DNA of 64,000 nucleotides, from the NCBI RefSeq assembly GCF_053078305.1, contig NZ_CP166879.1; one strand, written 5' to 3'. Below the pieces are notes generated by a model. The model did not search any database. It was not told the origin of the DNA and was given only the letters and a program-made list of their open reading frames with translations. Position numbers and translations under genes: made by a program. Positions 52,851-58,033 of this stretch are shown in pieces. The first letter of the stretch is position 1. The number at the start of each line of letters is the position of its first letter.

Positions 52851-55800
52851 TTATTCCGGGCGCGGCTTCAGCGGGAAGCGGCGGCGCACCAGCACAAAGA
52901 ACAGCGGCACGAAGTAAATAGCCAGAATAGTGGCTGAAATCATCCCGCCCATTACGCCAGTACCCACCGCATGCTGACCACCGGAACCGGCACCCGTGCT
53001 GGTTGCCATTGGCAATACGCCGAAGATAAATGCCAGCGAGGTCATTAGAATCGGGCGTAAACGCTGACGGCAGGCGTGGAGCGTCGCTTCAAACAGGTCG
53101 TGGCCTTTTTGGTTCATCTCGTTAGCAAACTCGACGATTAGGATGGCGTTTTTCGCCGATAAACCTATGACCGTTAACAGGCCCACCTGGAAGTAAACGT
53201 CGTTTTCCAGCCCGCGCATCCAGGTTGCTAGCAGCGCGCCGATAACCCCCAGCGGCACGACCAGCATTACCGAGAACGGTACCGACCAGCTTTCATACAA
53301 CGCCGCCAGACACAGGAATACCACCAGCAAGGAAATAGCGTACAGCGCCGGAGCCTGCGCGCCGGAAAGCCGCTCCTGATACGACATCGCCGTCCACTCC
53401 AGACCAAAGCCGTTTGGCAACTGCTTCACTAACGATTCCATAATATCCATCGCCGTACCGGTACTGACCCCCGGTGCGGCTTCCCCAACAATCTCAACCG
53501 CAGAATAACCGTTATAGCGTTCCAGACGCGGCGAGCCTGTCTCCCAGCGTGAGGTCGCGAAAGCAGAGAAGGGCACCATGCCGCCATCTTTATTTCGGAC
53601 ATACCAGAGATTAATGTCATCTGGCAGCATGCGATACGGCGCAGCTGCCTGCACATAGACTTTCTTCACGCGACCGCGATCCATAAAGTCATTCACATAG
53701 CTCGAACCCCAGGCGGTTTGCAGTGTGTCGTTAATATCGTCGATAGCAACGCCCAGCGCCTGAGCTTTACGCTGGTCGATATCAATCTGCAACTGCGGAC
53801 TGTCGTCGAGGCCGTTATGGCGCACACGGGTTAGCTCCGGGTTTTCCGCCGCCAGCGCCAGCAACTGGTTACGTGCTGCCATCAGCGCATCGTGACCTGC
53901 TCCAGCGTGGTCCTGCAACTCCATATCAAAACCCGCAGAACTACCAAGACCGCTAATTGCTGGCGGGCTGCTGGCGATAACGCGAGCTTCTTTAATCTTG
54001 TTAAACGCCTTCGTTGCACGCTCGATAATGGCAAATGAGGTGCCGGTCTTACTGTCGCGTTCGCTCCAGTCTTTCAGGCGGATAAACATTCGCGCCACGT
54101 TTTGCCCGTTACCCCCAGGGCCAGAGCCAACAGTGGCAAACACCGACATGATGTTGTCTTTTTCATGGGTGAAGTAATATTTCTCGATTTGCTCAACGAC
54201 TTTCAGGGTCTGTTGTTGGGTTGAACCGCTGGGCAATTGTACCGAGGTAGTAAACATGCCCCGGTCTTCCAGCGGTAAGAACGACGTCGGCAAACGCAGG
54301 AACAGGAACACCATGCCGCCAAGCAGCAGGACATAAATCACAATCCAGCGCAGGCTACGGTGGAGAATTTTCGCCACCCCTTTTTCGTAGCGTTCGGCGT
54401 TGCGGTTAAACATCTGGTTAAACCAGGCAAAAAAGCCTTTTTGCCCGTGATGCTCACCTTTTTTCAGTGGCTTAAGTAGCGTGGCACACAGAGCCGGAGT
54501 GAGGATCATCGCTACCAGTACTGACAGCACCATCGCCGCAACAATGGTAATAGAGAACTGGCGATAGATGGCACCGGTGGTGCCGCCGAAGAAGGCCATT
54601 GGTACAAATACCGCCGAAAGCACCATCGCAATCCCGACCAGTGCCCCCTGGATCTGCCCCATCGATTTACGTGTGGCTTCGCGAGGAGTGAGTCCTTCCT
54701 CACTCATAATACGTTCGACGTTTTCCACCACCACGATGGCGTCATCCACCAGCAGACCGATCGCCAGCACCATCGCGAACATGGTTAAGGTGTTGACGCT
54801 GTAACCGAAGGCGTAAAGTACGGAGAAGGTTCCCATCAACACCACCGGCACGGCGATAGTGGGTATCAGCGTGGCGCGGAAGTTTTGCAGGAACAGATAC
54901 ATAACGAGGAAAACCAGGGCGATAGCTTCCAGCAGCGTTTTCACCACGTCTTCAATGGAGGCTTTAACAAACGAGGTGGTTTCATACGCCACCTTGTATT
55001 CCAGTCCGTGCGGGAAGTACTGCGCCAGCTCGTCGAGACGATTGAGCACCAGCTCCGCTGTCGCCATTTCGTTTGCGCCGGAGGCCAGTTTTACCCCCAG
55101 CCCCGAGGCTGGCTTACCATTGAAGCGGCTAAGATAATCGTATTTCTCCGCCCCCATTTCGACGGTGGCGACATCGCCCAGCCTTACCTCTGAGCCGTCC
55201 TGATTCACCCGCAAGGTGATATCGCGGAACTGTTCTGGTGTTTGCAGCAGTGACTGGGCGTTAATGGTGGCGTTGAGCGCCTGCTTATCGACGGAAGGTG
55301 TACCCCCAAGTTGCCCAACCGCAATCTGCGCGTTCTGTGACTCAATGGCATCAGTGACATCTTTAGCCGTCATCTGGAAACTGTTGAGTTTCGCCGGGTC
55401 CAGCCAGATACGCATGGAATATTGCGAACCATAGGCATCGATATCCCCGACGCCATTCACGCGGCTTAACGGGTCCTGAATATTACTGGCAACATAATCA
55501 GCAATATCCTGTTTATCCATCGAACCATCGGTAGAGACGAAGGCAATGGTCAGAATGTTGGTATCGCCGGTTTTACGCACCGTCACGCCCTGATTTTGCA
55601 CCGCCTGCGGTAACTTTCGCATGGCTGATTGCAGCTGGTTTTGTACTTGCTGCACGGCTTCGTCCGGATCGGTGCCTGCTTTAAAACTTAAAGTGACAGA
55701 TGCCTGACCGGTGCCACTGCTCTGAGATGACATATACATGAGATTATCGAGGCCGGTCATATTTTGCTCGATAACCTGGGTCACGGTGTTTTCCAGCGTC

Positions 55801-55964
55801 TGGGCCGATGCGCCGGGATAGTTAGCGGTCACTCGCACATTCGGTGGCGCGAGATCGGGGTATTGTTCAACGGGCAATGAAAAAATCGCCAGGGTACCTG
55901 TCAGACACAACAGGATTGCCAGCACCCAGGCAAAAATGGGGCGATCAATAAAGAAATTCGCCAT
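52851..55964 (-). CDS. acrD: RND multidrug/aminoglycoside efflux pump AcrD
   Basis: 1037 aa, 12-TM RND transporter recognised as AcrD. Confidence 0.95.
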
Positions 55965-56035
55965 TAAAAGAGGACCTCGTGTTTCTGCGTATCGTTGTAG
56001 GCTTGACTTGCTTCACTGTAGCGGCAAGGTACGAG

Positions 56036-56054
56036 CCAATCGTGGAGAAAAAAA
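56036..56054 (-). promoter_or_regulatory. BaeR box upstream of acrD
   Basis: Minus strand reads TTTTTTCTCCACGATTGGC, matching the BaeR consensus TTTTTCTCCATDATTGGC at all but the central dinucleotide; about 75-90 bp upstream of the acrD ATG. Confidence 0.65.
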
Positions 56055-56127
56055 GGAGTTAATGTAAATTATCATGCCCTTTTATACTGAATCTTAAGTG
56101 CAAGTATTCTTTGGTCAGTAGGAGGCA

Positions 56128-57828
56128 TTACATCAACTGACTTTCCTCACCCTCCGCAGAGCGAAAGCTAATACTCACTAACGTGCCGCCGCCGGAAGGT
56201 TGTGAAAAAGTCAGCGTCCCACCTAGCCGTTCCGCGCGTTCGCGCATGATATTCAGACCATAATGACCTTCGGGTTCTTTCGGTTCACCGATACCAATCC
56301 CGTTATCACGGATATAAACCGTGTGATTGCCGTCCGGCGCGGTGACGCAACTGACGGCGATTTCGCTGGCGTTGGCGTGCTTCATCGCATTCAGCACCGC
56401 TTCGCGAATAATTTGCAACAAATGCACCTGCATTTGCGCATCCAGTGCCAGGGTTGGCAGACGGCAGTCGAGGGTCAGTTTGGCGCTGGTTTGATTTTGT
56501 AACGTATCCAGCATTTCCCTCAACGCGGAGGGGAGATCCGCCTGCTGCAGCGTCAGGCGGAAAGTAGTCAACAGCTCGCGTAACTGCCGATAAGCATCAT
56601 TCAACGCCTGGGAAAAATCGGCCATGATACTTTGTGCGGTGGCGTTATCTTCCGGTATCGAACGCTTCAGTAACGTCAACTGGATACGTAAGTAAGAAAG
56701 TACCTGAGCCAGCGAGTCGTGCAATTCGCGGGCGATGGTTGCACGTTCTTCCATCAACAATAACTGCTGAAAATGCTTCTGCGCCTGATTAAAGTACAAA
56801 CCGCGTCCCAGCATCGACGAAACGCTGTTAAGCAGCGGTTCTGATGATGAAACGTGACTATTTTGCCAGTGCAGTTCGCCGTAAACCGTCTCTTGCATTG
56901 TCACCGGTAAAATCTGCATCGGCAATTCCGGGTTTGGTTGCCCTTCGCTAATCCGCCAGTTTTCACCGACATTTAACTCCAGATATTCAGCCGCTTCATT
57001 GTCGCGAACAATCTGCAAAATATGGCGGAAACAATGCACATCAATCTGGCTGGTGTTCAGCGCCTGCGAACATTGATACAACACCTCCAGACGACGCTTG
57101 GCCTCGTGGAGATCGCGGGTCTTTTCTTCTACTGACGCCTCCAGCGAACGGTACAATTTATGTAGCTCGCTCGACATCTGGTTAAAGGTTTTTGCAAGCA
57201 GGCCAAGCTCATTCGGCAGGCTGGTATCCAGCGGTGGCGAGTCGAACTGTCCGTGTTCAATACGCTGACTGGCGGTAACCAGCTGATTCAGCGGGGCAAC
57301 CACCTGATGGCGTATGCGGCGCAAAGTAAAAAAGACCAGCGTGAAAATACCGATGCCGCCAGCCAGGGAAATCGCCACCACCAGCAGCATTTTGCGTTCA
57401 GCGTAGTGCTGTAAAGCCAGCACGAACAGGTCTATCTGATTAACATAATTATTAATATTGGCCTGATACCACGGCAAATCGCCCTTGCTGAGCCGATTAT
57501 TCATCTCCAGCCAGTTGGCATTCAGATGCGCATAGCGAGTTTTTACTGCTTCTGGCACATACCAGACGTTGAGATTGGTTAATACCGGTGAATGCAGTGC
57601 CTGCTGAAATAACTGGCGATGTGCATTGAGTTGTGGACTGCCACTTTGCAAGTCGTAGCCCAGGCGGTAACTCTGCATACGCAGCGATCCGGCAATATTG
57701 ATAGCCTCAGCGTCGCGCAAACTGCTCGCCAGAGTTAGCAGAGCGATACCCGTGGAAAGAATCGACAGCAGCACAATGTAAAAAAAGGCCCGGGCCAGAC
57801 TGGCCGAGACGGGTCGTTTAACAATCAC
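56128..57828 (-). CDS. narQ: nitrate/nitrite sensor histidine kinase NarQ
   Basis: 566 aa from GTG at 57828 (VIVKRPVSASLARAFFYIV...); P-box, HAMP and HisKA_3 histidine; track ORF begins at an upstream GTG (57843). Confidence 0.92.
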   Translation of the reverse strand: MIVKRPVSASLARAFFYIVLLSILSTGIALLTLASSLRDAEAINIAGSLRMQSYRLGYDLQSGSPQLNAHRQLFQQALHSPVLTNLNVWYVPEAVKTRYAHLNANWLEMNNRLSKGDLPWYQANINNYVNQIDLFVLALQHYAERKMLLVVAISLAGGIGIFTLVFFTLRRIRHQVVAPLNQLVTASQRIEHGQFDSPPLDTSLPNELGLLAKTFNQMSSELHKLYRSLEASVEEKTRDLHEAKRRLEVLYQCSQALNTSQIDVHCFRHILQIVRDNEAAEYLELNVGENWRISEGQPNPELPMQILPVTMQETVYGELHWQNSHVSSSEPLLNSVSSMLGRGLYFNQAQKHFQQLLLMEERATIARELHDSLAQVLSYLRIQLTLLKRSIPEDNATAQSIMADFSQALNDAYRQLRELLTTFRLTLQQADLPSALREMLDTLQNQTSAKLTLDCRLPTLALDAQMQVHLLQIIREAVLNAMKHANASEIAVSCVTAPDGNHTVYIRDNGIGIGEPKEPEGHYGLNIMRERAERLGGTLTFSQPSGGGTLVSISFRSAEGEESQLM

Positions 57829-58033
57829 ACGCGTCTTCTCCACAAAAAATCATTAATGTTCCAGTTCGCTGAAACGCAATTTAGTCAGTGATGGGATTAT
57901 TTGATCTGCCACAGTTTATAGCGAAATAGTTACTTATTCTGGGCACATGAACATTGCCGATTCCCCTGTAAGTCGGGTAATAACAACACTCATATAAAGA
58001 ATAAGGTTTTTACAACCAAAAAAGAAGGTCGTT

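Follow-up and report, generated by a model that had tools for sequence, protein, structure and literature searches.

The DNA analyzed in this study (the window) is a 64-kb stretch that includes the narQ-acrD locus of Escherichia coli. The acrD gene lies on the minus strand at 52851..55964, as judged from the open reading frame and the RefSeq annotation, and encodes a 1037-aa RND aminoglycoside/multidrug efflux permease, a pump that exports aminoglycosides and some β-lactams. The upstream gene, narQ, is on the same strand at 56128..57828 (1701 nt in the K-12 annotation; the ORF spans 56128..57843), with its stop codon at 56128-56130, and the two genes are separated by 163 nt. A Shine-Dalgarno sequence, GAGG, was found by direct reading of the minus strand at 55975..55978, 10 nt before the acrD ATG, and ACGAGGTCC was at least 90% conserved in the MAFFT alignment of acrD promoters described below. 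A site scan found no terminator-like site between narQ and acrD.

The acrD box and the published BaeR motif

The sequence of the minus strand at the site is ...AACTCCTTTTTTTCTCCACGATTGGCTCG... by direct reading. A pattern search of the 64-kb window identified within it an 18-nt match to the BaeR motif, TTTTTCTCCACGATTGGC, at 56052..56035 on the minus strand. This box is on the same strand as acrD and upstream of it, with 70 nt between the box and the start codon. It is identical to the box of K-12 MG1655, and the 301 nt around it are 100% identical to the corresponding sequence in many RefSeq E. coli chromosomes, in which narQ and acrD are the annotated neighbors. An earlier note on this DNA had reported a near-consensus BaeR box on the minus strand upstream of acrD, and such a sequence is indeed present: 17 of the 18 positions of TTTTTCTCCACGATTGGC fit TTTTTCTCCATDATTGGC, which is cited in later papers as the BaeR-binding motif of E. 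coli and credited there to Nishino et al. 2005. Two details of that description required correction. The coordinates it gave, 56036-56054, are one base off; the 19-mer TTTTTTCTCCACGATTGGC occupies 56053..56035, and a script check of 56054..56035 on the minus strand returned TTTTTTTCTCCACGATTGGC, with seven T's. The departure from the motif, which had been placed at a central dinucleotide, is a single T to C difference at motif position 11, because the G that follows position 11 is allowed by the D of the motif.

When up to three mismatches to TTTTTCTCCATDATTGGC were allowed, the acrD box was the single match in the 64-kb window, with 0.18 matches expected, and none of 100 dinucleotide-preserving shuffles contained a match with one mismatch or fewer. 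The 9-mer consensus TCTNCANAA, which later papers attribute to Yamamoto 2008 (the spy paper), was rejected as an informative motif; it is too short, with 16 matches versus 16.6 expected in 6.5 kb.

The similarity of the acrD box to the published motif is of limited value as evidence, as became clear when the boxes of the K-12 acrD, mdtA, and spy promoters were extracted from the genome. These boxes, TTTTTCTCCACGATTGGC (acrD, 70 nt to the ATG), TTTTTCTCCCTTATTGGC (mdtA, 53 nt), and TTTTTCTCCATAATTGGC (spy, 138 nt), are identical at 15 of 18 positions and differ only in the central triplet, which is ACG in acrD, CTT in mdtA, and ATA in spy. The bases most frequent in the three boxes at positions 10 and 11 are A and T, and position 12 carries G, T, or A, which is the D of the published motif. 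Because the majority of the three sites reproduces the published motif, the term "near-consensus" is accurate as a description, with its one mismatch to TTTTTCTCCATDATTGGC, and circular as an argument: the acrD site seems to be among the sequences from which the motif was derived rather than an independent match to it. The published 18-mer is, in other words, an E. coli-centered majority of three sites.

Conservation of the acrD promoter

Orthologous promoters were collected by searching a single genome of each species with the protein as guide, which yielded 80 loci with AcrD orthologues of 82–99% identity from genera that include Escherichia, Citrobacter, Salmonella, Enterobacter, Klebsiella, Kosakonia, Kluyvera, Buttiauxella, Cedecea, and Erwinia. 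One truncated locus (L054) was dropped, and the compared set (n = 80) consisted of the remaining 79 loci plus the window. For column counts, seven invariant columns served as the anchor pattern CTCCAYG; an unanchored MAFFT alignment agreed with the anchored counts.

The pattern CTCCAYG was present in 78 of the 80 acrD promoters, and the box was located 68–74 nt upstream of the ATG in nearly all loci. In the MAFFT alignment, a sharp island of conservation extended from approximately 56077 to 56037 and a second island was seen at CCGCTACAGTG; the 5′ 45 nt of the intergenic region were essentially unconserved. Among the 73 non-Escherichia species, the mean information content per position was 1.57 bits in the 18-mer, 1.56 bits in the adjoining upstream 25 nt, and 1.65 bits in the candidate −10 element discussed below, as compared with 0.13 bits in unconserved intergenic DNA.

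Conservation was not uniform within the 18-mer. Columns 56050-56041 were 96–100% conserved, seven of them being the anchor columns, and TTTCTCCACG and TTG were conserved at 85–100%. The first two T's, position 56040 (A or T), and the final GC (56036-56035) were variable. The hexamer ATTGGC that ends all three K-12 boxes was found in only 3 of 78 sequences, so that the GGC end of the published motif is not a conserved feature. The ACG triplet, which holds the "mismatch" to the motif, was invariant among the acrD orthologues. The conserved unit is thus larger than the published 18-mer and, at its 3′ end, looser than the motif implies. Within E. coli, a blastn search with the 55-mer 56026-56080 found an exact copy in 5336 of 5425 records, whereas over the surrounding 301 nt identity was below 99% in 1894 of the 5425. 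We conclude that the acrD box is a genuine cis element, functional in appearance and deeply conserved, that it is not a chance match, and that its spacing is fixed.

Several loci deserve separate mention. The only two without CTCCAYG were L069 (Shimwellia pseudoproteus), which had no recognizable box within 260 nt, and L083 (an uncultured Cedecea sp.), which had the variant ...ATCTTCGTAATTTCCCCACGTTTG.... A third locus, L046 (CACSKA010000009.1), is labeled Chryseobacterium sp. 18061; its AcrD is 88% identical to that of E. coli, and it has a complete enterobacterial acrD promoter module that is nearly identical to that of L060 (Enterobacteriaceae bacterium 89). Because a Bacteroidota label is implausible for such a promoter and such an AcrD, the L046 assembly is likely to be contaminated or mislabeled.

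Phased repeats and a candidate acrD promoter

The conserved region contains three phased elements. The proximal one, TCTCCACGA (56040..56048, minus strand), is the box core and differs from TCTNCANAA at one base. The first base of the middle one, ACTCC (56055..56059, minus strand), is exactly 11 nt upstream of that of the proximal TCTCC. The 11-nt spacing was found in 77 of 78 sequences, giving a direct repeat of the form TCTCC-N6-TCTCC; the middle element itself was TCTCC in 60 sequences, TCTTC in 13, and ACTCC in 2 (n = 78). Direct-orientation half-sites with an 11-nt period constitute an arrangement of the OmpR/PhoB type, in which the E. coli upstream copy is ACTCC, and we infer from this arrangement that the TCTCC repeats are the BaeR contacts. 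The distal element, TTTACATTA (56060..56068, minus strand), starts 20 nt upstream of the proximal TCTCC, and TTTACA was present at exactly that distance in 76 of 78 sequences; TACA (56066-56063) was 100% conserved and the preceding T (56067) 99%. Similar elements were found in K-12 mdtA (GTTTCATAA, 21 nt) and spy (TCTCCATCA, 22 nt), at approximately two helical turns. The distal element is a candidate for a third BaeR half-site.

On the plus strand, the same DNA (56055-56068) has the appearance of a translation signal: GGAG-A7-GGAG precedes TTA, ATG, and TAA, which together resemble a Shine-Dalgarno sequence with a start-stop pair. This pattern is probably the mirror image of the BaeR half-sites.

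Position 56059, the first base of the middle element, is A on the minus strand in E. coli versus T in 99% of the 73 non-Escherichia species. T was also found in three of the four other Escherichia-labeled loci (L004, L006, and L007). The A appears to be fixed in E. coli, because the 55-mer that includes it was exact in nearly all of the E. coli records, as given above. Such a substitution could weaken the upstream BaeR half-site.

In 77 of 78 sequences, a hexamer of the form TAnAGT or TACATT began exactly 14 nt downstream of the box, which puts its first base 27 nt from the C of CTCC. The E. coli hexamer, TACAGT (56015..56020, minus strand), is a candidate −10 element of acrD on the basis of its conservation and spacing. 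TACAGT was the most frequent form (41 sequences), followed by TAGAGT (15), TAAAGT (13), and TACATT (7); the T, A, A, and T of the hexamer were 99–100% conserved, as was G56022 at position −14 (99%). The first 8 nt of the spacer between the box and the hexamer varied while the spacing remained fixed. No −35-like hexamer was found at a spacing of 15–19 nt from this −10 element, and a consensus scan detected no σ70 promoter at that position. The predicted transcription start site would be near 56008. With a start at about that position, the proximal element would lie at approximately −40 to −30, the middle element at −51 to −47, and the distal element at −60 to −52.

The start-site map of Kim et al. 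2012, obtained under non-inducing conditions, contains no start in the narQ-acrD intergenic region. The only start assigned to acrD in that map is inside narQ, 624 nt upstream (K-12 position 2584993 of NC_000913.2), with 3 reads. Basal transcription of acrD may come from read-through or from an internal narQ promoter. Our literature search found no paper that links acrD, BaeR, and a transcription start site. A promoter-like sequence in the intergenic region, TTAAGA-18-GATAAT (56097..56068), was also considered as the regulated promoter and was rejected because its −35 part is unconserved and it is located upstream of the operator.

A CpxR site has been listed for acrD in Table S1 of PMC9600279, which attributes it to Hirakawa et al. 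2005. This site, GTATAAAAGGGCATG (56073..56087, minus strand), is located upstream of the three elements, 4 nt from the distal one, and has four mismatches to GTAAA-N5-GTAAA. It is partly conserved, with the AAA at 56083-56081 conserved at 77–88%. A canonical CpxR tandem box, GTAAA-N5-GTAAA, was looked for throughout 55965-56127 and was absent at two mismatches or fewer.

Probable regulation of acrD by BaeR and relation to known systems

Published work counts acrD among the core members of the BaeSR regulon and describes BaeR as its primary regulator and CpxR as an enhancer whose effect on acrD depends on BaeSR; alterations in baeS raise acrD expression. Direct regulation of acrD by BaeR, or binding of BaeR at acrD, is described in several papers, as judged from secondary sources. 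In Erwinia amylovora, BaeR bound an acrD promoter fragment in gel mobility shift assays (Pletzer and Weingart 2014), and that paper states that BaeR-acrD binding was "already shown in other enterobacteria". A footprint or mutagenesis of the acrD box was not found in the later and secondary literature searched. BaeR-dependent induction and direct BaeR binding are accordingly taken here from published work. The reading in the earlier note, a BaeR box consistent with the known BaeSR induction of acrD, is supported by this regulon membership together with the conservation of the box core, and the site as such is an already described BaeR site, not a new one.

One published result points the other way. 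In a ChIP-exo study of strain MG1655 in 5% ethanol, Choudhary et al. (PMC7657598) found BaeR peaks at spy and mdtA and none at acrD; acrD was also outside the BaeR iModulon, and these authors called its regulation by BaeR indirect. This negative result comes from one growth condition and one tagged strain.

Taken together, these data make it very probable that the site is the BaeR operator of the E. coli acrD promoter; phosphorylated BaeR would bind phased repeats that overlap the −35 region and activate acrD, with CpxR assisting. The proposed mechanism would be as follows. Envelope stress (indole, zinc, copper, tungstate, or flavonoids), or a gain-of-function change in baeS, would cause BaeS to phosphorylate BaeR. 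BaeR, a winged-helix protein of the OmpR/PhoB family, would then bind head-to-tail to TCTCCACGA (56048-56040), to ACTCC (56059-56055), and probably to TTTACATTA (56068-56060). Since the box is followed at 14 nt by TACAGT and a −35 hexamer is absent, the proximal half-site would be at approximately −40 to −30; it would take the place of the −35 element and recruit RNA polymerase, as PhoB does at pho boxes. CpxR bound just upstream, at 56087-56073, would enhance the effect of BaeR. Both the −35-overlapping mode of activation and the layout with three half-sites are predictions from the arrangement of the conserved elements.

A more specific version of this model is that the functional operator is a module of approximately 34 bp, TTTACAyTA / TCTCC / TCTCCACG-wTTG, locked at 14 nt from the −10 element, and that the derived T-to-A change at 56059 weakens cooperative BaeR occupancy in E. 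coli. We regard this version as tentative and, as a whole, rather unlikely. If true, the weakened occupancy would explain both the missing ChIP-exo peak at acrD and the weaker response of acrD than of spy and mdtA in K-12. The missing peak may be related to A56059, and we offer that connection as a hypothesis only.

The principal alternative to a BaeR operator is that in E. coli the box is a relic or binds BaeR only very weakly, and that induction of acrD by BaeSR takes an indirect route, such as CpxR or another regulator. The ChIP-exo and iModulon results would fit such a reading, as would the degenerate middle repeat of E. coli, with A at 56059 in place of the T found in 99% of other species. 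A relic would not, however, be expected to retain its core in 78 of 80 sequences at an exact distance from the −10 element, and 15 of its 18 positions are as in the BaeR-bound spy and mdtA boxes. Since the ChIP-exo evidence is negative only, and direct regulation or binding by BaeR is described in several papers, we consider a relic or weak site improbable.

Somewhat less probable still is that the conserved block of approximately 50 bp chiefly serves another protein, such as CpxR, EvgA, or an unknown factor, and that its resemblance to BaeR sites is secondary. Conservation does reach well 5′ of the 18-mer (GCATGATAATTTACA), 56087-56073 is annotated as a CpxR site, the distal element overlaps a plus-strand GTAAA pentamer (56064-56068), and acrD has been reported to respond to EvgAS. 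Against these points, what acrD has in common with the promoters of spy and mdtA coincides exactly with the 18-mer, the intergenic region contains no canonical CpxR tandem at two mismatches or fewer, and the effect of CpxR on acrD depends on BaeSR according to the literature. A chance similarity in AT-rich DNA, or a narQ terminator or structured RNA, is effectively refuted: the seven consecutive T's might be taken for a terminator tail and the 9-mer TCTNCANAA is no commoner than chance at this locus, but no shuffled sequence matched TTTTTCTCCATDATTGGC at one mismatch or fewer, no terminator-like site was found between narQ and acrD, folding was no better than that of shuffles (z = −0.76), there was no Rfam match at E ≤ 1, and the box is deeply conserved.

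BaeSR-dependent induction of acrD underlies resistance, for example the temocillin resistance that results from alterations in baeS. Confirmation of a textbook-level BaeR site at acrD adds little in itself. The larger conserved unit with its fixed phasing to the −10 element, and its looser 3′ end, should improve searches for BaeR target motifs in other Enterobacteriaceae, and the larger phased unit provides a testable explanation of the conflicting ChIP-exo result.

The BaeR operator proposed here can be compared with three known systems. The first is acrD of E. amylovora, in which the gene and the regulator are orthologous and a similar box is reported by Pletzer and Weingart 2014. There, the box is located at −166 to −148, much farther from the start codon than the 70 nt of E. 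coli. The related species Erwinia mallotivora (L081) carries AATTTCTCCACGATTATC, with TTTACA and TCTTC upstream as elsewhere. In L081 the box is 139 nt from the ATG; in two other loci the module is likewise intact and the distance is long, 198 nt in Kosakonia oryziphila (L056) and 91 nt in Phytobacter diazotrophicus (L063). These longer distances point to insertions in the 5′ untranslated region, and they agree with the position of the E. amylovora box.

The second comparison is with spy and mdtA, the promoters that gave BaeR ChIP-exo peaks where acrD gave none. All three promoters share TTTTTCTCC...ATTGGC, and in each the box has a T-run 5′ of the CTCC core and is oriented in the same way with respect to its gene. 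Each also has a CTCC/TTCT-like repeat 10–11 nt upstream and a TyTnCA-like element at 20–22 nt. In K-12 spy, the BaeR box is followed after 14 nt by a TACACT hexamer (L003, about 950-930, minus strand), the same spacing as that of the candidate acrD −10 element. The spy CpxR site listed in the literature (GTAAAACAATGAAAG, reverse strand) is just downstream of TACACT, and the ATG is 138 nt from the box. Because of these two features, the geometry of spy differs from that of acrD or includes a second promoter. The CpxR site is thus downstream of the BaeR box in spy and upstream of it in acrD.

The third comparison is with pho boxes. Activators of the OmpR/PhoB family, such as PhoB at pho boxes, bind sites that overlap or replace the −35 element. 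The acrD module resembles pho boxes in its direct repeats with a period of 10–11 bp, its missing −35 element, and its fixed distance to the candidate −10 element. The 11-bp direct repeats, the rigid spacing to the −10 element, the G at −14, and the absence of a −35 hexamer are together what would be expected of an OmpR/PhoB-family activator bound in the −35 region. The two systems differ in the distance downstream: the proximal repeat of acrD ends approximately 19 nt from the −10 element, or 14 nt when the TTGGC tail is included, whereas pho boxes are located approximately 10 nt from theirs.
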